From Rhynchobatus australiae (taxonomy: Eukaryota), in contig JAUZTB010000107.1 in NCBI GenBank assembly GCA_034780895.1, positions 33,580,790 to 33,644,789 of the forward strand: a stretch of DNA of 64,000 nucleotides, read 5' to 3'. The translations under genes were made by a program, and so were the position numbers. The notes under the pieces are model-generated. The model worked only from the letters and a program-made list of their open reading frames with translations. It had not been told where the DNA came from and did not search any database. How positions within the stretch are numbered: the stretch's first letter is position 1; every line of letters starts with the position of its first letter. Below are positions 8,941 through 62,422 of the stretch, piece after piece.

Positions 8941-11469
8941 TGTAGGTTTGTATGTTGACAAACTAGTTATTGGCCCAACCACTAGATCTGATTTTACCTT
9001 GAGGAAGACACCTAGAAATAACTACCTCAAGGAAATTAGCACAGTCTTAATGAGCAAGATCCTACAACCTTCCAAAGGTAAATCCCACAAAAATGCTTTG
9101 AATGTCTGTGACGGGATGCTCTTAGGCTGAAATGGTGAGAATGTTTCTGAACTTCACAACATTCAAAAACCATTTTAAAAATTACATACACTGTTAAAAT
9201 CTTTTTACAGTTTTAAAAGTCTAAATAATACTAGAAAATAATTAAAAATCAATTGTAAGGATGCAGTTTATCTGAAAAATTACATCTCTCCCTCTGACTG
9301 AATGGAGTTGATGAACCTCTGCTGACTTCAACAGGTGGTTTTCCCTAGCCTAACAGCTGGGAAATTGCCAAAATTCATGCCGGACTCCATGAGCAGTCTA
9401 GGATCGGAGTAAAGCAAACTTCACAGTGGCGAGCAGCTGCATAGAAATTTAGGGCATCAGTACTCGTGTATATCTGTCCAAAGCCCCAAACCTTTTCAGA
9501 AATAGGGCCAGGACTTTCATACTGGATGAAAGATTTTTTTGTGGAAATTCTGGGCCAAATCTGTAATTCTGAAAAGAATTTAACTGTTCAAAAAATATAC
9601 TTTTGTATACTTGAATGTGTTTTCAGGGGTAAAAAGAAACATACTGTATGCACACAGGTAATATAAATTTCTCTTCCATTGTATTTTGAAGAACCCTGAC
9701 TTTACTGGCCTCTTATGTTCAACGCTACAATGACTGTAGTCNNNNNNNNTCATTTGTACTATTTGATGTGTGATATGACTTTTAGGTTTTTTTGTGTAAG
9801 TTGTTGGTTGGTTTTATAATTTGTTGATGCTGCACATAATGTTTCTTCAGGTGTATGTACTAGTAAAATGGCTGGCTTTATCCTACCCTGATTGTATGCC
9901 AAAAGGAAAATTGATACCATTCATAAAGCAAGATTTTGCATCATCATCCATAAGCCCCTCAACTAAGCTTTCACAATCCCAGTTAGACCATTATAAACTC
10001 TGTTGAATAATAAAATAAAACTTTCTTTTGTCAAAAAGGAAGAAAATATCTAGAAATTATAGCTGAGTGTCACAGTGGGGTGTCAAAATAATTCATTGAT
10101 CACCATCACAAACTCCAGTGGGTGTGATAAGCATTTGGTTTTGAAATTCTGCTGCCCTGTGGACTCCATTCAGAGGGCAGCTTCAGGTTGGTTGGCTGCC
10201 ATAGATCCAATTGCTGAGCTTGGATGGTGTCAGGGCCAGGGTAGGGCAATTCTGGGATAAGACAATGGGAAATCTTGACAGTTGTGGCCTGAACCTTTGG
10301 GGATCTTGGGTCCCTGATGGAGAACTGTGAAGGGGATGGAATTGGATGCAGGTATGTAATGACTCACCTGACAGTCATCCCACTCCAGCAATGTGCTAGA
10401 TAGTCCAGATTTCAGAAGTGCTCAGCTTGATCTATGTTCCGCTGCAATACTTCAAAAAGAATGTTGCACGGGAAATAACATCATCCTTTGCACCCGACAT
10501 GAAAATGATCAGAGATGCAAGGGTGACTCATATCATAAACGATCTGATCAAAATTCCAAAGTGATACAAAATCACCTGTAAATCACTCATGAAAATAATT
10601 TTTCAACTGCATATTGCTGAGAAAAAATTCATTATGCAATTAGCTTTCTAGGCAACTGTTTTACCAATTTTAGTTACAAGACCTCATCTGTTTATACAAG
10701 GATGTTCTCTATTCCCTGGTGCTCAAGTAACCAAAAAGTTTCATCATTTTGCATCACTAATTAACTAACCAATTGTCTCGGATGTAAATTATGAGTATTA
10801 CAGGACAGTGAAACAGCACGCTTCGCTCAAGTTTCCTTTATTGGATTTTTATTTTGAGATTTGAATTAGGAGTGAAAGCATCCAAGATGAAGGATTTTGG
10901 AATCATTTTGCTTATGTCTAGACCATTAAGCAGTAACTCAAATATGTACTGTAAAACCNNNNNNNNNNNNNNNNNNNNNNNNNNNNNNNNNNNNNNNNNN
11001 NNNNNNNNNNNNNNNNNNNNNNNNNNNNNNNNNNNNNNNNNNNNNNNNNNNNNNNNNNNNNNNNNNNNNNNNNNNNNNNNNNNNNNNNNNNNNNNNNNNN
11101 NNNNNNNNNNNNNNNNNNNNNNNNNNNNNNNNNNNNNNNNNNNNNNNNNNNNNNNNNNNNNNNNNNNNNNNNNNNNNNNNNNNNNNNNNNNNNNNNNNNN
11201 NNNNNNNNNNNNNNNNNNNNNNNNNNNNNNNNNNNNNNNNNNNNNNNNNNNNNNNNNNNNNNNNNNNNNNNNNNNNNNNNNNCCTGTGCAAAAAGGCACC
11301 TGATATGACTGGAAGGTAGAACGCCTAACACTTGTTCCAACAGAGATCAAATCCTTGGCCTCAAAGGCATTATTACTAATTTTAAAAGCAACACAACCAA
11401 TGGTAGAATGGTCATTGTGGGCTACACATTTAGGGCAGGACACCTCCAATGAATTAAAATCAGTCCTGA

Positions 11470-11745
11470 TTTCCAGTGCTCACTCTGGAGTTTGCACATT
11501 CTCTGTGTGGCTGCTGGATTACCTCTAGGTACTCCAGTTTCTTCCCATGTCCCTAAGATATGCAAGTTGGAAGGCTAATTGGCCACTGTAAATTGCCTCA
11601 GCTTGTAGGCAAGTGGTAAAATCTTGGGGCAGTTGCTGGGATGTGGGGAGAATAAAATGTGATGAATGATCAGTGTAAATGGGTGTGCAATGGTTAGCAA
11701 GACCTCAGTGGGCTGAAGAGATTGTTTCTGTGGTGTATGACTCTA
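11470..11745 (+). mobile_element. V-SINE (HE1-like) copy
   Basis: V-domain GGAGTTTGCACATTCTC...ACTCCAGTTTCTTCCCATGTCCCTAAGATATGC...TAATTGGCCACTGTAAATTGCC with a CR1-like tail. Confidence 0.75.
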
Positions 11746-11862: not shown

Positions 11863-12055
11863 TTTTTTTTTCATTCTTCAGAATCATGGTATTGCCAGCA
11901 AGGCCAAAAGTTGTCATCCACTCTAATTACCCTTGGGAAGGTAGTGGTAAGCTATTTTAAAATGCTGCATTCTTTCTGGTCAGCATATTCCCACAACACT
12001 GTTAGGTTGGGATTTCCAGGATACAGACCCAGTGGCAACGAAGGACCAGCAATAT
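11863..12055 (-). mobile_element. L2/Crack-like (CR1 group) LINE 3' end
   Basis: Same 3' block as the copies at ~34.9 kb and ~51.3 kb (CCCTTGGGAAGGTAGTGGTAAG...CCCACAACACTGTTAGG...TTCCAGGAT). Confidence 0.6.
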
Positions 12056-12250
12056 AATTTACAATAGCCAATTATCCTACCAACCAGCATGTCTTTGGGA
12101 TGTGGAAGGAAACTGGAGAACCCAGAGCAACTCATGTGGGCACTGAAAGAATGTGTAAAGTCCACATAGACAGCACCAGAGATCAGGATTGAACCTGCAA
12201 TGCTTGAGGTCTGAGGCAGCAGCACTGCCTTCCTGCTACTGTGCCACTCA
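12056..12250 (-). mobile_element. V-SINE (HE1-like) copy
   Basis: Reverse-complement V-domain GCATGTCTTTGGGATGTGGAAGGAAACTGGAG and B-box-like GGATTGAACCTG. Confidence 0.8.
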
Positions 12251-14180: not shown

Positions 14181-14299
14181 AGTCCAAGACTACAAGAGTG
14201 GTGTTAGTCACTTCTTGCACGTCAGAAAATTGTGCTCCCAAGTTCTGCATAAAACTTTGTACCTAGCTGGTGCTGATCTTATTCAACATTCATGGTTAC

Positions 14300-14750
14300 A
14301 ACATAGAAGGAGGTCACTTAGCCCATTGTGTCTATGCTGCCTCTCAAAACAATCCCATCCATTCTTTTTGTCCCACTTTTTTCCCTGTAACCTATTCTGC
14401 CACATGTCCATCATTTCCACCCTGATTCTCCAANNNNNNNNNNNNNNNNNNNNNNNNNNNNNNNNNNNNNNNNNNNNNNNNNNNNNNNNNNNNNNNNNNN
14501 NNNNNNNNNNNNNNNNNNNNNNNNNNNNNNNNNTGATTCTCCAACCACATCACCTACATTAGAGCTTATTTACAGCAGCCAATTAACCTACCAGCCAGCA
14601 CATCTTTGGAAGTATGGGAGGAAACAAGAGCAAATAGAAGAAACTCACACAATAAGCAGAACCAGAGGTCAAAAATCAAATCCAGGTCTCTGGTGCACGA
14701 CCTGGTGCACCACCGTGAGCTTATTGAGAATTTGAACCTGGGACCTCTCA
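14300..14750 (-). mobile_element. V-SINE (HE1-like) copy spanning a gap
   Basis: TTTACAGCAGCCAATTAACCTACCAGCCAGCACATCTTTGGAAGTATGGGAGGAAAC plus the reverse-complement CR1-like tail at 14300-14345. Confidence 0.7.
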
Positions 14751-16167: not shown

Positions 16168-16957
16168 GTTGTCTACATGGACTTTAGTAAGGCCTTTGAC
16201 AAGGTCCAATATGGGAGGTTAGTTCAGAAGGTTCAGACACTAGGTATCCATGGAGAGTTTGTAAACTGGATCTGAAACTGGCTGTGTGGGAGGAGACAGA
16301 GAGTGGTAGTGGATGATTGTTTCTTAGACTAGAGGCCTGTGACTAGTGGTGTGCCTCAGGGATCTGTGCTGGGACCATTGTTGTTTGTTGTCTATATCAA
16401 TGATCTAGNNNNNNNNNNNNNNNNNNNNNNNNNNNNNNNNNNNNNNNNNNNNNNNNNNNNNNNNNNNNNNNNNNNNNNNNNNNNNNNNNNNNNNNNNNNN
16501 NNNNNNNNTACTAGAATGTTGCCAGGTCTTCAGGAGTTGAGTTACAGGGAAAGACTGAACAGGTTAGGACTTTATTCCTTGGAGCGTAGAAGAATGAGGG
16601 GGGATTTGATAGAGGTTTACAAAATTATGAAGGGTATAGACAGAGTAAATGTGAGTAGGCTCTTTCCATCTAGATTAGGAGAGATAAGTATGAGAGGACA
16701 TGGCCTTAGGGTAAAAGAGGAAAGGTTTAGGGGAGACTTCTTCATTCAGAGCGTGGGGGGAGTGTGGAACAGGCTGCCATCTGACATGGTAAATGCTGGC
16801 TCACTCTTAAATTATAAGAATAAATTGGATAGATACATGGACAGGAGAGGGCTGGAGGGTTATAGACTGGGTGCAGGTCAATGGGACTGGCAGAATAAAG
16901 TTTTGGCACAGACTAGGAGGGCCGAATGGCCTGTTTTCTGTGCTGTAGTGTTCTATG
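16168..16957 (+). mobile_element. CR1 LINE ORF2 reverse transcriptase and 3' end (5'-truncated, gap inside)
   Basis: VVYMDFSKAFDKV...TSGVPQGSVLGPLLFVVYINDL...LSYRERLNRLGLYSLERRRMRGDLIEVYKIMKG...WNRLP, with tail TTCTATG. Internal stops are present. Confidence 0.95.
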
Positions 16958-17144
16958 GACTGTGCACTACCTACAAAGCCAGCAATGGGTGCATAATTCT
17001 TGCACATCTTGATCCCTACACCCTCCTTTGCTGGGAGAAGGGTTTTTAATTTAGTCTCCACAATCCACAAAATTAATTTCTGCATGTAAAAAAAAATCCA
17101 CTAGTTATGTCCATTCACATTAAAACTACTAAAATTAACAGATT

Positions 17145-19104: not shown

Positions 19105-19568
19105 GGGTGGCACAATGGTGCAGCAGCTAGTGTTAGTGTGGCATCCCTCCAATGATCTGGGTTCAATTCTGACCTCCAGTGATGTCCCTGTGGAATTCAT
19201 ACATTGCTTCTGTAACCATGTGAATTTCCCGACGCTCCAGTTTCCTCCCACATCCCAAAGACATGCTGGATACCAGGTTAATAGGTCACTGTAAATTATC
19301 CGTAGTGTAAGTGAGTGGAAGGGGAGNNNNNNNNNNNNNNNNNNNNNNNNNNNNNNNNNNNNNNNNNNNNNNNNNNNNNNNNNNNNNNNNNNNNNNNNNN
19401 NNNNNNNNNNNNNNNNNNNNNNNNNNTAGTGAAAGGCAAGAGAATCAGGGTAGAATTGATGGGCATGAGAGAGAGAATAGGCAACGGGGCAAAAATGGGG
19501 GAAAAGGATTGATGGGGTTTCTCTGAGAGCCTGTATAGACCCAATGGGCTGAATGGCTTCCTATGTTG
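19105..19568 (+). mobile_element. V-SINE (HE1-like), near full length
   Basis: A-box-like GGTGGCACAATGGTGCAGC, B-box GGTTCAATTCT, V-domain CTCCAGTTTCCTCCCACATCCCAAAGACATGC, and tail ATGGGCTGAATGGCTTCCT. Confidence 0.85.
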
Positions 19569-20321
19569 TGAGAGAATATGAAGTATGAGATAATCTGATG
19601 TTCACCAGGCACAGCATAGCCAAGCAGTGATATGTTCATGCATGATCCTTGCTCTGAGAACTTCAAAAAGAGGAAGACAGCTATAGTCGGAGAGAGCCCA
19701 AAAGGCAGCAGCCAGAGGCCCCAGGGACCAAAGAATTTGCTGGAAGTAAACCAGACTGATCAGTCATACTAGTGTAATTCAAACCTGCCGTCAATCTCTT
19801 CTCACGTTTACCAGAGGCTGTTGCTCCTATAAGTAGTCTGGCCATGTTATTATCATGTGCGTTGACTCATATTGCTTAATGTCTACTTGTTCCACAGTAT
19901 TTCAACAGCTACAGCTGTTTACCTGTGTCTTTCACCCATGTAATGCTTCAATCTTTCCAAAGGTAGACTGAGTGGAGAGAAGTGACCAGTTAAGATATCA
20001 CTGAGCTGCTTCGCTTCATAGCATGTAGGTACAGAACACCAGCTGTAATGGCTGGCTTGGATATACTTTGCTTTCAATATTAATTAAAATAATGAATTAC
20101 GATATACTACATTGACACTATTTATTTATAATTGTAAGATTTTTGTACAACCATCTGATAAATCCCAGTCTTTGCATTCTGCGGTTCTTCAATCTCTAAT
20201 GTCAGCTTTTATACAAATTTACTACCCCTACCCAATTGCCTAATTTGGCAAAGTCCCTCCCTAGCAGAGGTCAAATGAGTAGAATCAATAAAGTAGCAAT
20301 TAGTAAAAATGATCAAAAGTA

Positions 20322-27064: not shown

Positions 27065-27880
27065 AATGGATCTTACATTTAATGTGTGCAAACCAAAGGT
27101 CCCCTACCAACTTGCCTCTGGTATACAACAAAATTTCTTACAACGAAGATACACAAGGAACTTCTGGAAAATGTGGATCACTGGCATATCTTGAGAGCCA
27201 CTTCTCAATGAAGGCAAATATTGCTGACCATTGCGCCAGCATTGTCTCTTGCCATCTGGCAGAGTGTTTGAAAAATCAGGAGTTCAAAGCCAACAGCAAT
27301 CCTTGCCCTCCTGTATGCCTCCAAGTCACAGTTAAAAACAGCAGGCACCTCAGAAGAAACAGAGGATTACCACCAATACCATCTCTGGAAAATCCTCCAA
27401 ATCCACTGGCAGGGTAAATAAACAAATATCAGGGTCATTTCCCAAAATATTATCCCTAGCATTGAGGCATTAATTACACAGAGTGGCTAGGCAACATTTT
27501 TCTCAAGCCCAACATCAGAATTCAAAAACATTCTGTTCATAGTTCTACCATGGCAAGTGGATAGAGGAAACAAGGTATACCATCTCCATTGTCTCATAGG
27601 AATTTTTGTTGCAAGACCACTCAAGATGAAAAAAAAGTATCTGAGATGGTATTGCAAACCTCATTCTTTTATCAGGATCGCACCACCTGCCAAACCACCC
27701 AGCTGCCTGCCTTGTCAAGCACTTCCTATTCCTCTTGTCGAAGAATCTACAGGTCCCACATTGGCCTCATCAGTCAAATCAGAACCCAGTCCCAGTGTAG
27801 AAGCAAGTCATCCTCAATCCCCAGGGATAGCCAAAGAGAGAAAGAGGGAGAGGGAATTATCCTCACAAACAACTAAATGA
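27065..27880 (+). mobile_element. RTE-clade LINE fossil inserted in the CR1
   Basis: YLESHFSMKANI, ILALLYAS, YHQYHLWKILQIHWQ, and C-terminal SCRRIYRSHIGLIS (RTE-type zinc-finger tail). Confidence 0.8.
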
Positions 27881-35560: not shown

Positions 35561-35834
35561 TGNNNNNNNNNNTCAATTGCATAATGCTGGAAAACAAAAT
35601 GGCATTATGCAACTGAATTTCCAGACAGTTGTTGTTTTTATCATTAGGCTGGATCTCTTGATCATAAGTCTAGTCCCATAACTCCTATGCTATTTACAAA
35701 CTGTGCCATAAAATTGATGCAATGTTCTCACATGTGCACCTGAGCTATTGTTAGGTCTGCCAATGCCAAGAGCTATCCAATTGTTCGGTTAGAGTTGCAT
35801 TAATTTCGTTCTCACTTAGTTGTGTTCAATGCAA

Positions 35835-36050
35835 ATAAAACCTGCAGATGCTGGAAATCTGAATTTAAAACAGAAAATGCTGGAAATACTTTGCAGGTTA
35901 TGGAGTATAGCAGGGAGAGAGAAGTGGAGTTAACATTTCAGATAGTTGAAAATTTGTTTTAAGCTGAAACGTTATGAAGCATTAACCACGTTTCTCTCTC
36001 TGTGGATGCTGAATAATCTGTTGAGTATTTCCAGCATTTTCTGATCTTAC
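35835..36050. repeat. Fold-back (inverted) pair of Penelope-type terminal repeats
   Basis: CAGAAAATGCTGGAAATACT...GAGAGAGAAG...GTTAACATTTCAG, mirrored by CTGAAACGTTA...TTTCTCTCTCTG...AGTATTTCCAGCATTTTCTG. Confidence 0.8.
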
Positions 36051-36744
36051 TTGTATCATTTTAAATCTTCCTGCAATAATCAAAACTGAGCTGAGACGGT
36101 GCAGGAAAAATCGATAAAATAAAAACTATAAGAAAAGTGCAATTATTGAAAACCTCAACCAGCAAGTAAATAACACCATTTACTAATAGCCTACTGTAAA
36201 GTTGGACCACGAGAGAGACATAAGTCATGGAGTTCACTTACTGGGGCAGTTGACCACAAGTTTTGGATATTTAAATCCAACAGTATGGATTAGAAATTGC
36301 ATCATTATATATTAATGGATTTAATAATGCACCATGATCAGTTTAATAATGTTTGTGAAAGTTACAATAAGATCGAGAAGTTTAATTGCAAGTTCACAAA
36401 GCAATGTTTTCGGCTTCCCCTCCATAACGCTGCACTGCAATTGACATTGTTGCAGGTGCAATTTTTGCACCCAATTCTTAACGGGGGTGAGATAGTGCAG
36501 CCAAGGGTTCAGAGAGACTTATACGAGCTGGTGAAAAACTGCCCACAGGAGGCATGTTCTTTGAGTGAGTGGAAGAGACCTTAGGGCCACAGCCACACAC
36601 TTGTGGCAGGAGCTTGACAGCAAGGTCTCTTTAAGGATGAGTACAGTGCAGCCATCTGCAATGCAGGCAATTGCAAACTCTTCCTGCTGCTCTAGGCTGA
36701 AGGATGAAGATAATAGTGGATGAAATCTTCTTTCTTTGAAATAA

Positions 36745-36866
36745 AAAAGGCATTAGATGCTGGAAATCTGAAATAAAACAGAAAATGCTAGAAACACTCA
36801 GCAAGCCGGGCAGTATCTGTGGAAGGAGAAACAGAGTTGACATTTCAGGTCCAAGCCCTTTCACCT
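36745..36866 (-). mobile_element. Single Penelope-type terminal repeat
   Basis: AGATGCTGGAAATCTGAAATAAAACAGAAAATGCTAGAAACACTCAGC...GAGTTGACATTTCAGGTCC. Confidence 0.75.
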
Positions 36867-38289: not shown

Positions 38290-38760
38290 AATGTTTCCTT
38301 CCACTAATGGGTGCATGGTAGCTTGTGAGGTAGCCCACTCTTGCCATCACTTATGCAAGGCCTCCAGGTACACCCGATGCATAGTCTGGACATGGACCAA
38401 AAATCCCCCGGAATTGGTGCATTTCTTCAAGGAAGATGCAAGTACATCCTTGAATATTTTTCTCTGCCTGCCTAGATTTCTCTTCCAATTACAGAGCTTG
38501 TAATACAGTGTCTATTTTAAGACTCTGGTGTGTTTTCAGTGCATGAATGACATGGCCTTCCCCATGTAGCCATATTATAACCAGGGCTTCAATATGGTCT
38601 TGGCCTAGGAAAGCATACTGAAATTGGTTTCCTTGTCCTTTCAGTGATTTTAGAGGATTTTGTGGAAACAGTATCGATATTCCTTCCAGATCCTTTGCAA
38701 TATCTACTAAAGGTAGTCCAGGTCTCAGAAGAACACAGGAGAACAGCCATCACCATTGTA
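38290..38760 (-). mobile_element. RTE-clade LINE fossil
   Basis: Minus strand SETWTT, EGHVIH, and LYYKLCNWKRNLGRQRK...KDVLASSLKKC. Confidence 0.75.
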
Positions 38761-47797: not shown

Positions 47798-49929
47798 GAG
47801 TGTGAATGAAAGAAGTAATACAGATCCATAATCTATATCTGAACTCTGTAATAAACTTGTACCAAAAAAGATGCAGAGTCAGAAAGTTCAGTTCCTTCAG
47901 TACTTTTCCTGAAAATGTAAAATCTTCATGACATATACTTCATGGATTCCAGCACCTTCGTTATTCAAACCATTATTCAATCAGCAGTGAGTGATAACAG
48001 CATGCTTATCTGTCTCAAGCATACTATTCTCATTCAATGTTCATATATGTATACTTCATAGCTGGGATAGCTGTATGGCAAATCAAGAGCAGGAACCTTG
48101 GTTGATATTTCCTCAGACTAACTTGGACTCATTCAGGTCAATTTGTAATGCTCTGTCTACTATTGCTGCTAATGTTAGCTAACTTAGCACATTTGAAGGA
48201 TCAGACTTGGGAGGCATTCTGCACTGAATGGTTTACTACCAAATCACACAGTGCACACATCCAGGTCCATCAAGGACAGNNNNNNNNNNNNNNNNNNNNN
48301 NNNNNNNNNNNNNNNNNNNNNNNNNNNNNNNNNNNNNNNNNNNNNNNNNNNNNNNNNNNNNNNNNNNNNNNNNNNNNNNAATGGTTTACTACCAAATCAC
48401 ACAGTGCACACATCCAGGTCCATCAAGGACAGCTCAGACAGAACATTCTTATTGGCCAAGGTGGTTATTTCATTTCATATTTAAAACTGAGTAATAACAT
48501 GCTGACAATAAATATATTCATGTGATTTTATATAGAAAGCAGGAGAAGCAGTTTCAATTCTATAGCCTGATGCCATCGTTTTTGTTGATGCTAGCATTTT
48601 AGTCTTTGGCTTTAAATTTGCTTTATTATTTTAAATAGATAATATACAAACAATGCAAGTCTAACTCTATAATTTGCTGTTGTGTAGATATTGACAGAAT
48701 TCCTTTACTCTTAGCTAGGTTACAACCTTGAATACATATTCAATGGCTATTCTCTATCAAACACTGTGTTACTTTATGATGATGCAAGCATCAGCAAAAT
48801 TAGAAGCTATCATAAAACAATCAATATTAAAATTTTTGCAATCTGGCTCAAAATTTAATTAAGCAGAACATTATTATTTTATAACAAAATAACCTCAAAA
48901 AATGTAACAACTTAATTTCCTGCACTATACAGTGGTTTTTCACCATTTTTTGTCCCAGGTTCAAATACATTCCTAAAAATAAGAAAAGTAAGACAAGGCA
49001 TGGGTACGTCACACCAGTTAAATGTAAGATGGTGAATTCCACTCTTTAGAGATAACCTAGGGCTTGAGACAGGCAAATCTGGAACACGCACTACCAAGGC
49101 TTTGGAGCCTGAACTTCGCCCTCAGTGGACTGTTTGAGGAGACTTGTACCTAGTGAAGTGTAAAAATAAAAACAGATGAAAAATGGAAGTAGGGATGTGA
49201 GGGGCTTGAAGTCAACACAGCTGTAGCACCAAGGCTGTGCTTTAAAAAGGTGCACACAAATGAGTGAAGTTACTTCCTAGAACAAAAGCCATTTAGTGTT
49301 CTTGGACAGTTCCTAGTGCCTGATTCAAAGGCAACATTTACAAATGAAAGGATGGACAAAAGAAGCAAATATAAAGGACTGAAGACATTTTTGCTTAAAA
49401 GGGAGTGGCAAAACCAAAATGTTAGTAAAGAAAATTAAAGAAAAAATTATGAACAATACAGCAATAAAATAGATGTCAGGCAAGACAAAGATAATAAAAG
49501 AATTACAAACCAAGATTGAAGAGGCAAATAAATGAATTCAGTTATCACGTGTTCTCAAGCCAAGATAGTACAAGGCTGATTAAATTTTGGATCTCAATTT
49601 TAAATTCCTGTATTTGATTCCATTCTTGGTTTTATCCTCCTTTACCTCCATAAGCTTCCCCAGTCCAGAAAGTACTTAAAATCTCTCTGCTCCTACCGTT
49701 CTGGCTATGTGCATCAATTCCTCTTTAATTATAAGCAAAGTCAAAATTTGTTACAAAGAGTAACTAACTACATGAAGCTCAGGGAGATGAGCATTTTACA
49801 GACTCCTTTTGTTTGCCATTTTTACAAAGACATACACAAGAGCTTCCAGGAGCATTGCAAATTAACAATCTTACTCATCTGACCGCATTGACTACTGCAG
49901 CAGTATTAATGTGGTGGACCACAGTTCAC

Positions 49930-50830
49930 ATCTCAGGACCCACTTCTCAAGGAAAGCAGACATCATAATGGAATGCACCATCATCTTCAGTATGCCAACA
50001 CAGTCTTTGATCAATTGAGGGAAAGGGGATTTCAAGATCCAGCCTCTGATTTGGCACAGTGCTCATGGCCTACTTGATCGCAGTGAGCCCTACCCTCTGA
50101 TATGCTTCATAGTCCTGGACTACCTCATGGAAAAATACTACCAATATATATTCACAAAATCCTCCAAATTCACTGGAAGTATAACTGAACCAACAACAGC
50201 ATCCTCTCCTAAGTCAACATCCCTAATATTGAGGCCCTAGTTACTTTCAGTCAGCTTTGTTGGGTTGGAGACACAAGAGACTGCAGATGCTGGAATCTGG
50301 AGCAACACACAAGATACTGGAGGAACTCAGCAGGTCAAGCAGCATTGATGGAGGGAAATGGACAGTTGACATTTCAGGTCGAGACCCTTCATCTGTACTG
50401 CTTTGTTGGGTTGACTATGTTGTTCACATGCCTGACTCCAGACTCCCAAAATAGACATTCCATTCCACGCTCTGTTGTGGGAGGAGATTACCAAACAGAC
50501 AGAAAAACATTTGAGGATGTGAACAAAGATACCTCCGAGAAGCGCAACATCCCTACTGGCTCCTCGGAACCTCTGATCTATGACCAAAGTGAGAGGAGCC
50601 TTTGGGATNNNNNNNNNNNNNGAATTGAGAACCTCAGGGCCTTGCATCAGGAGAACAAAGAAGCTCCACCTCACAAACTACTCACCCACCCACTTCGTCA
50701 TGCACCTCCTGCCCCATCTGTGGAAGAGTCTGTGGTTCCCATATTGGTTTCATTAGCCACCCCAGAACCCACAAAGCCAGAGTGGAAACACGTCATGCTT
50801 GATCCTAAGGAACTGCCTAAGAAGTGAAGT
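49930..50830 (+). mobile_element. RTE-clade LINE fossil
   Basis: HFSRKADI, KILQIHWK, LCWVDYVVHMPDSRLPK and ICGRVCGSHIGFISH. Confidence 0.8.
50268..50400 (-). mobile_element. Short Penelope-terminus insertion starting with a degenerate hammerhead motif, with a 13-14 bp target-site duplication
   Basis: Flanked by GCTTTGTTGGGTTG at 50254-50267 and 50400-50413. The minus strand begins CAGTA CAGATGA AGGGTC TC GACCT GAAA T GTC AACTG. Confidence 0.8.
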
Positions 50831-51239
50831 TATAGATCTCTTTACATGGTTCCCTTCAAAAAAAAGTTCTATGTTTAATTAAAACAAACAACATCACAAC
50901 AGACATTATTAAAGTGCATAGTCCTTCAATCACACTGCTGGCTGCTTCCAAATCTATGATCATTAACTAGTATTTGTCACAGGGGATTCCCACTGCTGTT
51001 TAATTATTCCATCTTACTTTGGAGAATACAGACGGTTCACTGCACCAAAGGGGACCTGCATTACAGTGCAGTCCTCAATACTCTGATCTGTGGACAAGTC
51101 TCTTCTTTCAGTTCTCTTCAGAAGGAAGCTGCATCGTGCTTCCAATCATCTCTCTGCAGAACTAGTTTTTATTCCTTCATTTCATGCCAATGTAACGATA
51201 CTAAAATTTCAGATTTATGAGACTCTGTGAGAAGGTTTC

Positions 51240-51660
51240 ATTTGTCAGGATCTGGACATTGTAGGCAAAGGCACGATATGTTACCCACACCTAATGGACA
51301 TCAGAAAGTGATCGTGAGACACCTTCTTGAACCACTACTGCCTGAAGGCACTCCCACAATGCTCTTAAACTGGGAATTTCAGGATTTAGATTCAGTGCAT
51401 CTCCACGTGCTTATTTACCTTATCCTGCTTGCACAGACTGCAGATGAGACACACTGCAATCACAGAGCACCAGCGATGAAAGGAGTGAATGTTTAGGATA
51501 GTGGATATGGTGCCAATCAAGTAGGCTGTTTTGTCCTGGATGGTGTCAACTTTCTTTGTTGAAGCTGCAGTCATCCAAGCAGACAGAGTATTCCATCATG
51601 CTCCTGATTTGTGCCTTGCAGATGGCACAAACACTTTTACTGTGTCGAGAGATGAGACTC
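51240..51660 (-). mobile_element. L2/Crack-like LINE ORF2 3' fossil
   Basis: ICKAQIRSMMEYS...MTAASTKKVDTIQDKTAYLIGTISTILNIHSFHR. Confidence 0.8.
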
Positions 51661-51974
51661 TCATCCCTTGAGTCCCTATGTCTCCCTTTACTGAGGTTCT
51701 AGCATAATTTTATTCCTTGCTGAAAACTCATCTAAAGTACTCATGTATATCTGGACCAAGAACAATGGCTCTGACCTCATGTTCTAGCCACAGAATGAGT
51801 GTGGCTAGTGCAGTTGAGTTTCTGTTCAATAATGCTTTTCAGATTGCTTAACAGTTTTGGAAGCATAAATTTCACTTGCCACGTAACAGTATTTAAAAAA
51901 CACACACACCTAAGGGATATCTAGGATTTACACAATTCAGAAATGGACTTCTAAACCTGTTGGGGTGTTGCAGA

Positions 51975-52200
51975 TGCATGGAAAGTGGTCACTTGGCTCA
52001 TTAAGTCTGTCTGTACCAGCTCTATGTTAGAGCAATCCTTTGCCTTCTTTCCAGAGCCCTGTAAATCCTTTCTGGTATGTATCCAGCTCCCTATTGAATC
52101 CTATAAGTGAATCTTGCTTCACCACTACTACTGGCAACGTATTCCAGATCCTAGCCATATGTTGTGTAAAAGTATCTTTCCTCATTTCACTTTTGATTCT
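51975..52200 (-). mobile_element. CR1 LINE 3' end
   Basis: KSEMRKDTFTQHMARIWNTLPVVVVKQDSLIGFNRELDTY. Confidence 0.85.
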
Positions 52201-52499
52201 TTTGGAACATAGAACAGTACAGCACAATACAGTTTTTTTTAAACTACAGATGCTGGTTGTGTTAACAACCTGGCAACTGTCATTTGTTCCTATTTCCTGC
52301 TCTATTTTTCTTCCTAGTCTTCCATAAAACCCTGGTTTTAATTTTCTTCCCCTTCTCCTTCATGGAATGTACCAAGACTGTAGCTGAAACATCTCCACTT
52401 TAAAGGTCTCCCATAATTCAAATGAATAGAACTGAACATTATACAGTCATCAGCAAACATCCTCTCTTCCAACATTTTGATGGACATTGATGAATATCA

Positions 52500-52725
52500 A
52501 GAAAAAAAAACTGCAGATGCTGGAAATCTGAAACAAAAACAGGACGACGCTGGAAGCACTCACAAGGTCAGGCAGCATCTAGAGAAGGAGGAAGAGAGTT
52601 AATATTGAAGTCTGAAATGTTAACCCTGATTGTTTTTCCACAGATGTTGTCTGGCCTGCTTAGAGTTTCCAGCATTTTCTGCTTTTATTTCAGATTTCCA
52701 GCATCTGCAATATTTATGATTTTTA
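52500..52725. repeat. Fold-back (inverted) pair of Penelope-type terminal repeats
   Basis: Perfect 22-bp outer arms TGCAGATGCTGGAAATCTGAAA (52512-52533) and its reverse complement (52688-52709). Imperfect pairing continues about 95 bp inward. Confidence 0.9.
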
Positions 52726-53199: not shown

Positions 53200-55800
53200 T
53201 TTTATATAGGACAGCTGGTACAATTTGTTGTTCCTGACTATTATATTTCCTTATGCAGTTAATTTATCTTGAAAATCAATGGATGGAAACACTCAGGCAA
53301 GTCTGACATGACCCCAAGACATTACTGCTGAATGATAACTTTGTTGTTTTTGAACTGGATGATTAAACCATTCCCAACTTGTTTCATGGTGATCAGTTTC
53401 TTTCAACTCACATGTAAAATCACAGATACTAACTTCTGACAATTATGCTTTTGCTCTCTGAATCTGCTAATACCATCTCTTCCTCTTTTTCAAATGCTAC
53501 TTCACTGAAAACTTTTGACAAAATTCACTTAATTCTTCTAGGTGGAAAAACAATTGTTTCCAATGTATTCTTTTCAACATCTATCACATATACCTATCCA
53601 GAGATATTCTGTTCAAACTGGTCACAGCAAACAAAATTTCTAAGAGCTCCATCTCCATTTGTACATATTTCATCTCTGCTTCTGTTACAACCCTTATTCC
53701 ACAGGCAAATCATTCTCCAATGTGCATCATTGTTATCCAAATCCAATTTGAGGAGCATTAGATTATAAAGTTACCTCTTCTGTAAGATAATAATGTCTAT
53801 TAATTAGTGACCACTACCTTGTCTCTTCAGCACCACTTTGTGGGATTTTCCCCAGAACCACTCTATATCTTTCCATTCTAAATGTCTGAGGGACTTTACC
53901 ATAGCTGATAGATTAGGGAAAATTGCACATGTCCCAAAAAACCATTGGACAAGCCCTACATCTGTCAGTACTGGCATTTCCAAAAGTGCTTCAACTTCTG
54001 CTGGATCTGGACAAAATCCTTGGTCCATGGCAACAGCTCCAATGAAAGCAACATTTTGTTTCTATGACTTTATTTAGCACTCGTCAATGATCACTGCACT
54101 TTTGAAGTAATCATGATCTTAAATCACTTATTCTAATTTTTCTCTAAATCCTAGAGCCACAAATTCATCAGCAATTGATTGAAGTCCTTTCACCAATTCA
54201 TGTATTTTCCTTTGAAAAAGTTCAATCATAAATGTGACCCTGCATTACCTATGCTTCACACGGTACTCTCAAACGGTACATGGAAAGGAGTTACATATGA
54301 CAATTAGCCATCTAAACTTATGTACCAAAAGTCATTTCAAACATCATATAGGTGTGTGGCTCCATCTGCTATTGATAATAAAGCTCTGTTAGTAGGTTTA
54401 TTCAATATTTTAGGATATAAACATGTGTTGTGATTGATTGTTCTTAGATATTGCCACCACTGAATTGATCCAAGCTGTCAGTACTATGACTGGAACTAGA
54501 ATATCAAGTCTAAGACATCTAGCAGTTCGTTCTGCCTACTTTCTCAGCCATTAGCAACCTATGAGGTGCAAGTTGATGCTAAATTATTCTACTGCTTAAA
54601 TATTCTCCTTTAAGTTGTCAAATTCCATCACATTACAGCAGAGTGTACTTCTGCATTAAACATTCTTTAGTTACTGCCTTATAGCCAATTAACATATATA
54701 CCCCGATTCCAGTGGATGGTGCTCTATTATTATTGAATTATATACACTGTACATGCCTTTTGGCCCAGCAAATCCTAAAGTCACATTATCTACTTGTTTT
54801 CATTCAAACTTACATTTCTTGTTTATTACCATACTGGACTAACAGTTACACTTGCCCTNNNNNNNNNNNNNNNNNNNNNNNNNNNNNNNNNNNNNNNNNN
54901 NNNNNNNNNNNNNNNNNNNNNNNNNNNNNNNNNNNNNNNNNNNNNNNNNNNNNNNNNNCCCTTAAACAGGAAGGCAAGATTTACCAATAAGCTATAAGCA
55001 TAGATTCAAGTGGTTCCACTTTTATAAGTTTAAAATCAATGGATTTTTTCTCACATAAGTGATCCAGAATTATATTTCATTGGGCTCCTTTACTTATTGG
55101 AAATCTCAGATGCCACCTGACTCTAACTTAAGTGTAGCACACAACTCATCATGAAAACAAGCACTCATCTCACAGACAACAAAAACTATTGCTCTTAGCT
55201 CCTCATCAATTCTTCAGCCTGGGTGTTTACATGTTTGTTCCCATAGCAATTCCTTGCAAAATACTTGCTCCTTCTGTGCCCATTATACACTAAACTAAAA
55301 ACAGGGTGTAATTTCTCCAGTGGAACTCATTTTCTCCCATAGTTTCAACACTTGTGTCCTTGAATTTTATTTTAGCCTTAGTTCGTAGCTTTTCTCTGTC
55401 ATCCCCAGAGGTTTCTTTGAGTTTACATGCTGTTCACTTTCTGTCCTGTTGACTCACTAAATTACTTAATGTTGAATCTCCATGCTCTCTGTTTTCTCTG
55501 AGATCAGGTTATTTCTCAAAGCAATCTTTCTCACAGCTTTGAGTCTACAATTCCAAACACAAGTCTGTCTCTAAGTATTTCTCCCAGCATTTCTATATGA
55601 AACTCACAACCTTCCATGAGTTTTCACAAAGTTGATCTGTATTGATCATATGATTCACCAGCATCTTGTCTTCTCCTGTTATACTTATGCCTCTCAAAGG
55701 GAATGTCTCTTCACGATACTCAGAAAATTTCCTCAACACAGGGACAATCTTGCATTTATCCTCCTCTTAGGTCCAGTCCGTCCAAGTGGAATAAACTTCA
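53200..55800 (-). mobile_element. Gypsy/Ty3 LTR retrotransposon gag-pol fossil
   Basis: Gag IPFERHKYNRRRQDAGESYDQYRSTL*KLMEGCEF...EILRDRLVFGI (~55510-55710). Decayed protease RFPISKGAQ*NII (55069-55107). RT IADEF and GFCPDPAEVEALLEMP...FPNLSAMVKSLRHLEWKDIEWFWG. LTRs not identified. Confidence 0.85.
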
Positions 55801-59884: not shown

Positions 59885-61135
59885 GCTCATCTATCAACAC
59901 AATGGGTCAGGCAGCATCTGTGGAAGCAAAAGTGCAAGTTGATGTTTTGGGACAAGACCTTGATTCAGGACTGAGCAGGAAGAGGAAATATAGTCAGTAT
60001 ATAGTAGTACAAGGGAGGGGTGGGACAAAAGTCAGTAGGTCATAGGTGGAACCAATAAAGAGGAGAGACGGGCAGATGCAACCAGGTGAGGAAGGGGTAA
60101 GGCATGGGAAAGGTGAACAAAGGGAGTAGGAAGCCAGGTGGACAGGTGACTGGATGTGGGCTACTGAAATTGGAAAATTCAATGTTCATACCATAGGGTT
60201 GTAAGTTATGCAAGTGAAATATGAGATGTTGTTCTTCCAATTTATGTTAAGCCTCTCCATAGCAGTGAGAATGCACAGGAGTGGGAAGGAGACCTAAAAT
60301 GGAATGCTAGAGAAACAAAGGACTGCAGATGCTAGAATCTAGATGAAAACCAGGATGATGCTGGAGGAACTCAGCAGGCCGGGCAGCATCCATGGAGAAA
60401 AGCAGGCGATCAACATTTCAGGTTAGGATGCTTCTTCAGGACTGAAGTTGGGAAAAGGGGAAGTCCAATATATAGGACGGAAAGCAGAGCAGTGATAGGT
60501 GGACAAAAGAGGGGAGGCATGGTAGGTATGTGGTGGTGATATCTATCTTCAATCCTGAAGAAGGATCCTGACCCGAAACACTGACCACCTGCTTTTTTCC
60601 ATGGATGCTGCCTGGCCTGCTGAGCTTCTCCAGCATCATCATGTTTCTCATTGAACTGGAGAGAGCACTGGTGCTCCGCAAAATGGTTGCCTAGTCAATG
60701 CTTGGTTTCTCCAATGTAGAGGAGGTCACATCAGCACAGAATACAGGAGACCAGGTTGGAAGAGGTGCAGGTGAACCTCTGCCTCACTTGGAAGGGCTGT
60801 TTATGTCACTGGACGGCGCTGAGGGAGGATGTGAAGGGACAGGTGTTACACCTCTACAGTTGCAGGGGAAAGTGTCAGGGGATAGGGAAGGTGAGTGAGG
60901 TGGGATGCATGTACTAGTGTGTAATGAAGAGAGTAGTCCCTGCAGAAAGCAGAAAAAGAGGGGGTAGAGGAGAAGATGCAACTTGTGGTGGATCACGCTG
61001 GAGCTGGCAAAAATGGGCAAGGACGATATGTTGGGTGCAGAGGCTGGTGAGATGAAAAGTGATGACCAAGGGAGCTCTATCACTGTTCTGTCTGGAGGTG
61101 AGAGCGCAATGCAGAAAATACTTGTGCTCATTAAC
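59885..61135 (-). mobile_element. Penelope-like element fossil (RT thumb/linker, GIY-YIG endonuclease, 3' terminal repeat), interrupted at ~60311-60650
   Basis: DRAPLVITFHLTSL...QRDP, DTFPCNC, FQVRQRFTCTSSNLVSCILC*CDLLYIGETKH*LGNHFAEH, HFRSPSHS and EEQHLIFHLHNLQPYGMNIEFSNF. Confidence 0.9.
60311..60650. mobile_element. Inverted pair of Penelope terminal repeats nested inside the Penelope ORF
   Basis: GATGATGCTGGAGGAACTCAGCAGGCCGGGCAGCATCCATGGAGAAAAGCAGG, mirrored by CCTGCTTTTTTCCATGGATGCTGCCTGGCCTGCTGAGCTTCTCCAGCATCATC. Each arm carries CTGAAGA...GAAA. Confidence 0.85.
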
Positions 61136-61899
61136 CAAACTAGGTAATCAAAAAAATGAGTGGAGAAGAATTGGTTATCTACTAATCAGGATTTCAGTCA
61201 GGTGTCTGGTGCAAGAAGAAATGTAAGGGCATTGTTACGGTGGAGGTTGGAAAGATGGTGAGAACATGTAAAAAAAACTGAATTACATTTTTTATATTTC
61301 CAATGATTCAAAAAAATCACTAAAATATTACANNNNNNNNNNNNNNNNNNNNNNNNNNNNNNNNNNNNNNNNNNNNNNNNNNNNNNNNNNNNNNNNNNNN
61401 NNNNNNNNNNNNNNNNNNNNNNNNNNNNNNNNATATTTCCAATGATTCAAAAAAAGCACTAAAATATTCCACTTCGAAACAGCTTTTACAAAATCTGCAT
61501 CAGTTGCATTAACACAACCGATCATATCATACTAAAGTACTTCTATATGTAACAGCTAACACTACCATGCAACCCAAGCACCAACTGAGCTGTTTTTAAT
61601 CACACTTCACTTATCCAACCTAATCACTACTTTACAAAAACAAATGAGGCAGTTTGCTTATGTTGTGAGATATTTTCTCTACTTACTGATGCAAGTAAAA
61701 AATTTGACACATATCAGGTGGATTTCCCTTCCTTACAGCCTTGCTAACTTTTAAATTATTACAGAAAAAATATCACCAATGGCAAAGTGTCTCACAAAAG
61801 AATTTAGAAAAATTCAGGTGTCCAGTCTCAGAAGTACAGTATGTAAGAGCATGTATTGGATACCAGTTGGTGGACTAAGAAATAAGCAGTGTAGGTTCA

Positions 61900-62422
61900 T
61901 GAGTATTGCCAATATATAGCAGTGCAAAGTGCGGCGGGACAGAGGCTGGTAGGTTTGAGGGGGAGCCAGACAGGGAGGGGTTGATGGACATTATGGAACC
62001 AGGTGAAGGGAAGGGTGAACAAAGGTACCAGAAAACTGGATGTGGGAGAAGAACACCGTTTTTGTGGGTTACCTGAAATTGGAAAATTCAACATTTATAC
62101 CATTGGTTATAGGCTGCTCAAGCAGAATACAAGATGTTCTTCCAATGTGTGTTTGGCCTCTCACTCCCCATTTGCTTCCACCTGTCACCTACCAGTTATA
62201 ATAGCTAGGCAGACTTTGCTGTGGAGGGAAATTATTTCCCGACCCCCTTCGTACTGCTAATATACTAGCTACCTTTTCTGTTCCCTCTCAGTCCTGATGC
62301 AAGATCTCGACCCGAAATGCTGACTTACACCTTCTGCCTCCGCAGATGCTGATTGACCCGCTGAGTTCTTCTAGTGTTCTGTTTTCGTTCTAGATTCCAG
62401 CATTTGCAGTCTTTTTTGTCTT
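61900..62422. mobile_element. Penelope-like remnant with inverted halves
   Basis: Minus-strand endonuclease C-terminus (LEEHLVFCLSSL*P) to ~62160, then a plus-strand terminal repeat ending GATTCCAGCATTTGCAGTC. Confidence 0.8.

Follow-up and report, generated by a model that had tools for sequence, protein, structure and literature searches.

Penelope-like elements (PLEs) of the Neptune clade carry a minimal type I hammerhead near their 3' end, in which A9 is followed by an extra base (PMC8557442; PMC4209133), and an ORF with a C-terminal GIY-YIG and an upstream cysteine linker (PMC8557442). A cysteine linker before the GIY-YIG marks Neptune and Nematis elements (PMC8557442). Their copies show heavy 5' truncation, head-to-head inverted ends and duplications of variable length, and head-to-head arms are described as the usual PLE arrangement (PMC8557442). 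The thousands of solo minimal hammerheads found per genome are probably truncated PLEs (PMC4209133). In the parts of the literature consulted, the role of the PLE hammerhead is called unclear (PMC8557442) and cleavage is unnecessary in vitro (PMC11167929). Penelope-like repeats have been reported in the whale shark (10.1101/443036). Our search of the literature, mostly of open papers, found none that takes elasmobranch PLE hammerheads as its subject and none that treats a 'strong-stop' model for these elements.

We have analysed a short insert in a 64-kb stretch of the Rhynchobatus australiae genome (the window). It resembles the Neptune-clade elements in several respects: the hammerhead, with its extra base, lies in the insert, the endonuclease and a linker motif read by eye in remnants linked to it, and the truncation, inverted ends and variable duplication in its family. 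It differs from them in having neither ORF nor UTR and in its core, which reads CAGAUGA; the 5' ends of its family also differ, being clustered in the ribozyme.

Three other systems offer a comparison. Poseidon of Anolis carolinensis (PAc) has a 3' end that is fixed, about 110-120 nt after stem II begins, and an apparently uncleaved template, as here (PMC11167929). It belongs to another clade and prefers AT-rich targets (PMC11167929), whereas the target of the insert has 50% GC, and the consulted parts of PMC11167929 make no mention of run-off at stem I. The solo pLTRs of Adineta vaga Penelope are ORF-less pieces with palindromic junctions, again as here, and have 8-10 bp duplications (PMC3846280). 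They measure 180-220 bp and include a TATA-like, promoter-like box with a downstream initiator-like sequence, similar to the longer copies in our window, whereas the insert begins after the box (PMC3846280). Finally, metazoan non-LTR retrozymes are, like the insert, short, non-coding, PLE-related and equipped with a type I hammerhead; their defining traits are working ribozymes arranged in head-to-tail repeats, and circular RNAs (PMC7229834; bioRxiv 10.64898/2026.07.22.740005), whereas copies of the insert's family are solo or head-to-head and their ends ignore the cleavage site.

The family shows the traits of endonuclease-bearing PLEs (EN+), namely a common 3' end, a variable 5' end and an inverted 5' partner. 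The junction of a terminal repeat with a GIY-YIG ORF is found in the family and is absent from the insert copy. The head-to-tail arrays of retrozymes, in which two or more hammerheads are complete, were not found in the window; the insert has neither a canonical type I hammerhead with an intact core nor the tRNA-like head of tRNA-derived SINEs. It is one of the PLE terminal repeats and works as they do, and its repeat may well already be catalogued in Repbase or Dfam.

The insert and its host sequence

The insert lies on the minus strand between two copies of an exact 14-bp direct repeat, GCTTTGTTGGGTTG, with a spacing of 146 (Table 1). The G at 50400 is common to the repeat and to stem I of the element, so that readings of 132+14 and 133+13 both fit. 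As C1 of stem I is common to the duplication, the first certain base of the element is A2; the junction between insert and target has one base in common. When a 132-bp unit was placed at random 2658 times, allowing 5 nt of slack at each end, no placement gave a flanking repeat of at least 10 nt (the longest was 9). The repeat is a true target-site duplication, as had been proposed in an initial annotation of this DNA, which gave its length as 13-14 bp.

If the insert and one copy of the repeat are excised, the host frame is open across the junction (…IEALVTFSQLCWVDYVVHMPDSRLPK…). The empty site is spanned without insert by two paralogous fossils, 38679-38444 (67%, E 8e-24) and 27368-27528 (65%, E 2e-13). 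The two regions 27250-27560 and 38444-38700 are further fossils of the host LINE, about 65-67% identical to it. From its protein motif we take the host to resemble the C-terminal part of an RTE ORF; Pfam and PDB searches of the fossil gave no match supporting this label. Of the initial statement that the insert splits an RTE fossil, the split LINE and its empty site are thus confirmed while the name RTE lacks such a match. The host LINE fossil is likely older than the insert.

Other repeats are present in the window. Copies of another short repeat, 74-83% alike and presumably SINE-like, lie at 11460-11594, 12054-12195, 14298-14625 and 19160-19569, and a LINE remnant broken by a gap, with what we take to be a CR1-like protein motif, at 16333-17049. 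There are 22 N runs in the window, of which many have a length of exactly 100 and some have duplicated flanks (48227-48432, 61294-61471); the assembly is a fragmented short-read one.

Table 1. Coordinates of the insert, its host and the related copies in the window
Feature	Position	Strand	Remarks
Target-site duplication, left copy	50254..50267	+	Host sequence; adjoins 3' end of element
Target-site duplication, right copy	50400..50413	+	First base is C1 of stem I (1-nt overlap)
132-bp insert	50268..50399	-	3'-terminal piece (hammerhead and tail) of Penelope-like element
Conserved tail of insert	50268..50362	-	End is the putative reverse-transcription start
Decayed minimal type I hammerhead	50363..50400	-	Core motifs; layout as in PMC4209133
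Stem I	50400-50396 with 50367-50363	-	4/5 pairs, A-A mismatch
Hammerhead core CAGAUGA	50395-50389	-	U4 to A
Stem II	50387-50376	-	4 pairs and 4-nt loop
GAAA	50375-50372	-	Followed by U-GUC
Predicted cleavage site	between 50368 and 50367	-	Element position 34
Host LINE fossil, split by insert	50136..50520	+	Alignment to paralogous fossils
Longer copy	59890..60309	-	ORF C-terminus 60154-60309, ~190 nt UTR rich in pyrimidines, hammerhead starting at 59973, tail shortened
Head-to-head pair of related ends	60310..60655	.	60310-60444 minus with ~100 nt UTR; 60550-60655 plus
GIY-YIG endonuclease remnant	60662..60904	-	Upstream cysteine linker, Neptune-like; several stops
Copy with ~130 nt UTR before hammerhead	62160..62422	+	Joined to inverted ORF end 61900-62160
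Palindromic pair of ends	52499..52720	.	Both arms begin near element position 24-27
Palindromic pair of ends	35833..36055	.	Arms begin near position 24; spacer ~22 nt
Solo copy	36738..36866	-	Begins inside first core strand, ~position 8-10

Related copies and the link to a Penelope ORF

A profile search identified ten copies of the element end in the window. The insert matches a profile built without it at E 1e-27 and is 67-77% identical to the other nine. The 3' ends of the seven full-tailed copies agree within a few bases. In the insert the distance to this end from the first base of stem II is 120 nt; in its place the end resembles the internal site where reverse transcription begins in Anolis Poseidon. 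The longer copy joins ribozyme, UTR and ORF C-terminus, and its ORF end matches the protein P0004 (E 2e-11). The endonuclease remnant matches P0004 and a skate gene model, P0003, both of which carry the Pfam GIY-YIG domain. The cysteine linker, partly decayed in the remnant, is clearer in these two proteins. RT-like motifs are visible by eye in P0004, the only relative in which RT was seen, and no RT remnant of the insert's element was identified in the window. Because the homologous end is continuous with a UTR and a GIY-YIG-type ORF, the insert is, on homology, the 3' end of a PLE, which bears out the Penelope link of the initial annotation; the linker motif, read by eye, makes the Neptune clade likely.

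Several of the copies are arranged in pairs. The head-to-head pair at 60310-60655 sits between two ORF remnants, and 59890-61120 appears to be a decayed Penelope-like copy interrupted by it, with no clear duplication. At 61900-62422 a minus-strand ORF end is joined to a plus-strand UTR and ribozyme, the inverted 5' end typical of PLEs. The two palindromic units (52499-52720 and 35833-36055), of about 220 bp each, may have arisen as fold-back products, repeatedly, or may form a MITE-like palindromic subfamily. In the window, short units that are solo or palindromic are more numerous than those linked to an ORF, and the insert's closest subfamily was not seen there joined to an ORF. A search for duplications at six other units gave repeats of 6-7 nt in three (chance level) and none in three. 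No second copy with both ends of the insert was found (one in ten of the window copies, the insert, has them), nor was any tandem array, either at 49000-52000 or in a self-comparison of the window. No tRNA was found in the window and no Rfam match was obtained; the head of the insert is the ribozyme.

Homologues elsewhere were recognised in translation. Removing three of 15 matches and adding five new ones out of nine gave 17 proteins at 16 loci, the near-identical P0022 and P0023 being counted as one locus; the three removed (P0006, P0008 and P0014) are repetitive proteins and were judged chance. A translated copy of the insert's end is found in the stingray gene model P0024. The named sources of the relatives, a skate and a stingray, are both batoids, in agreement with the elasmobranch distribution suggested initially. 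P0003 (endonuclease end) and P0024 (antisense terminal repeat) are gene models that include pieces of the element, probably as annotation artefacts or by exonisation. A head-to-head arm is significant in four of the 17 homologues (0-6 of 500 shuffles) and borderline in two. The inverted arm that P0007 seems by eye to contain is of borderline significance (28 of 500 shuffles, no BLASTP alignment) and is therefore not counted as a second CAGAUG copy. Three loci (P0024, P0022/23 and the first copy in P0011) continue, by eye, into UTR-like sequence, and P0011 has two ends in the same direction with UTR-like sequence between them, that is, a PLE partial tandem. In bacterial and archaeal genomes the search returned a 21-nt match in a Bifidobacterium contig, judged chance since it has no further similarity; plasmids gave no match. 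A word-indexed search of longer proteins with the 44-aa frame of the insert gave two candidates, neither of which held.

The hammerhead motif

The minus strand of the insert has, at element positions 1-38, the layout of a minimal type I hammerhead starting at stem I, as written in the initial annotation, with an extra A after A9. The identification rests on core motifs, spacing and PLE context, since Rfam, folding and covariation gave no support. Rfam returned no hammerhead at gathering or E-value thresholds (four chance matches only), and the MFE fold does not surpass that of shuffles (z -0.16 and 0.10). In a count of pairs over the ten window copies 68.5% of stem cells are paired, against 2-52% in slid controls, and no pair covaries or shows compensatory change. 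None of the ten passes a strict minimal-hammerhead descriptor. The lack of support from Rfam, folding and covariation is as expected for a decayed minimal motif. Two matches to the strict pattern, at 54171 and 13258 (minus), were judged chance and unrelated to the insert's family.

Three positions of the insert's hammerhead look, by comparison with the other copies, like CpG decay. CUGA is kept in four of the five window copies covering that core strand. The core is readable at ten homologous loci: seven read as intact, one is ambiguous and two (P0007 and P0016) read H-L-D, which implies CAGAUG, the same core as in the insert. The core had been reported initially as mutated, and the CAGAUGA is indeed present; given its recurrence at two of ten informative loci it may not be private decay. 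It may be a subfamily trait, and independent changes in two old copies could also account for the recurrence. The natural variants that the consulted parts of PMC3088659 name do not include U4 to A, so that loss of self-cleavage is likely. With no upstream box and a damaged core, the insert copy is probably inert, in line with the initial view of it as dead.

Ends of the copies and origin of the insert

Three of the ten copies extend upstream of the ribozyme, by about 100 nt, by about 130 nt and into the ORF. The insert begins at position 1-2. Of the other six, one begins 3-5 nt earlier and another at about 8-10, while the two palindromic pairs account for four that begin near position 24-27. 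Seven of the ten starts fall in positions -5 to +27, a span of 32 nt (P is about 5e-4 if the most favourable geometric model of truncation is assumed, and 0.003-0.046 when the starts are counted as five of seven insertion events). This span was chosen after looking, so that the clustering is suggestive only; the sample is ten old copies from one window, and where copies are decayed their ends were located by eye. Tail-only profiles revealed no extra shorter copy (next match E 0.16-0.69; best E 0.8 in a reversed-window control): copies of less than about 105 nt at the 5' side, which these profiles would detect, are absent from the window. Because none of the copies begins at the cleavage site (position 34), cleavage-defined ends are rejected. 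The data suggest 5' ends that are neither fixed nor random. The initial annotation had proposed a separate family of about 133 bp with a common 5' end, for which the window gives no support, three of its copies extending upstream, one of them into the ORF; nor do the ends look random, the outcome it had set against its own proposal, as seven of ten gather at the ribozyme.

We consider it fairly probable that the insert is a PLE end placed in an older LINE by a nick, an internal start of reverse transcription and a stop at the start of the ribozyme. A Penelope protein would nick the target, and reverse transcription would begin inside the element's own RNA, about 130 nt downstream. The cDNA would end at the ribozyme start, probably because the transcript begins there (a run-off of 'strong-stop' type). 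In the usual cycle a jump between templates at the ribozyme start would lead on to copying of the ORF; here the cDNA would have been joined to the target instead. Against this scheme, none of the six other units has a duplication longer than 7 nt.

That the 5' end was set by run-off at the transcript start is a tentative reading, favoured by predicted promoter motifs. In all three upstream-bearing copies a TATA-like box (1-2 mismatches to TATAWAWR) begins 28-32 nt before C1 of stem I, and TCAGTC at stem I fits both initiator consensuses without mismatch; its predicted +1 A is A2, the first non-duplicated base of the insert. The three copies being homologous, these motifs are not independent. 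Only the insert starts exactly at the predicted +1, however, and five copies begin further inside the ribozyme, which a start site does not explain. For this one step, a stall where the stem I hairpin is closed comes close to run-off in probability and is just as tentative. Fold-back at the stems of the ribozyme, a kind of self-priming such as PMC3846280 proposes, accounts better for the palindromic pairs.

The stretch before stem I reads equally well as a splice acceptor, with a branch point, a pyrimidine tract (17-18/20) and a CAG. The Penelope intron of D. virilis ends at helix I (PMC4209133), and the promoter there, an internal one that is TATA-less, lies upstream of the intron (PMC2377424). 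At 62068-62088 (minus) the stop region of the ORF resembles a splice donor (CAG/GTAA), and at 59973-60000 (minus) the UTR ends in a branch point, pyrimidine tract and CAG. Splicing of the UTR stretch of about 190 nt would restore the same stem I start.

The insert is unlikely to represent a dedicated SINE-like non-autonomous family of about 130 bp, derived from short master copies via PLE proteins and possibly with a fixed CAGAUGA. Its clean ends and perfect duplication would fit such a family, as would the excess of solo and palindromic units over ORF-linked ones and the CAGAUG core of P0007 and P0016; moreover, rotifer pLTR sequences suffice for mobilisation in trans (PMC3846280) and non-autonomous PLE derivatives are known (PMC8557442; bioRxiv 10.64898/2026.07.22.740005). 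However, the window holds no second copy with the same two ends, homologues including that of stingray continue into UTR-like sequence, the insert is without the TATA-like box that lies upstream in longer copies, a head of tRNA origin was not found, and seven of the ten informative homologous loci read an intact core. Random 5' truncation of a PLE, with a coincidental match to stem I aided by the 1-nt microhomology, is rather improbable. PLEs are indeed heavily 5'-truncated (PMC8557442; PMC8969392), the starts in the window span from the ORF interior to position 27 and the junction shares a base with its target, whereas the gathering of starts within 32 nt and the lack of detectable copies below about 105 nt speak against it.

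A ribozyme-cleaved monomer of a non-LTR retrozyme, spread via circular RNA, is very improbable. The type I hammerhead, the lack of an ORF and a duplication of more than 4 bp are all compatible with it; monomers are known and one chondrichthyan genome has retrozymes (PMC7229834; bioRxiv 10.64898/2026.07.22.740005), and the chondrichthyan retrozyme families of the latter source could include the insert's sequence. The retrozyme comparison made initially fails, however, because there is no tandem array and no copy starts at the cleavage site; the hammerhead is minimal rather than canonical, with a damaged core, and the unit is below the 150-450 bp range given in PMC7229834. That direct repeat and hammerhead arose by chance or as an assembly artefact is scarcely credible in spite of the 22 N gaps and the Rfam, folding and covariation results, given a repeat exactly at both homology ends that exceeds all 2658 controls, an empty site confirmed by two paralogues and a nearest gap more than 190 bp from the insert.

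Taken singly, the insert is ordinary: a clean, short Penelope copy of a known element class. What makes it worth following is the gathering of 5' ends at the stems of the ribozyme, with none at the cleavage site, together with the recurrence of the core variant. One speculative extension, which we think improbable as a whole, is that transcripts of shark and ray pLTRs start at stem I, that a strong-stop cDNA of about 130 nt in many cases integrates by itself or folds back on hairpins of the ribozyme, and that a sub-lineage with a catalytically crippled CAGAUGA core then spread as the smallest Penelope-dependent SINE-like family, in which the fold is kept over cleavage. If the pattern were true genome-wide, elasmobranch genomes would be a large natural read-out of PLE RT stops and template switches, and would allow the need for cleavage in vivo to be tested directly.
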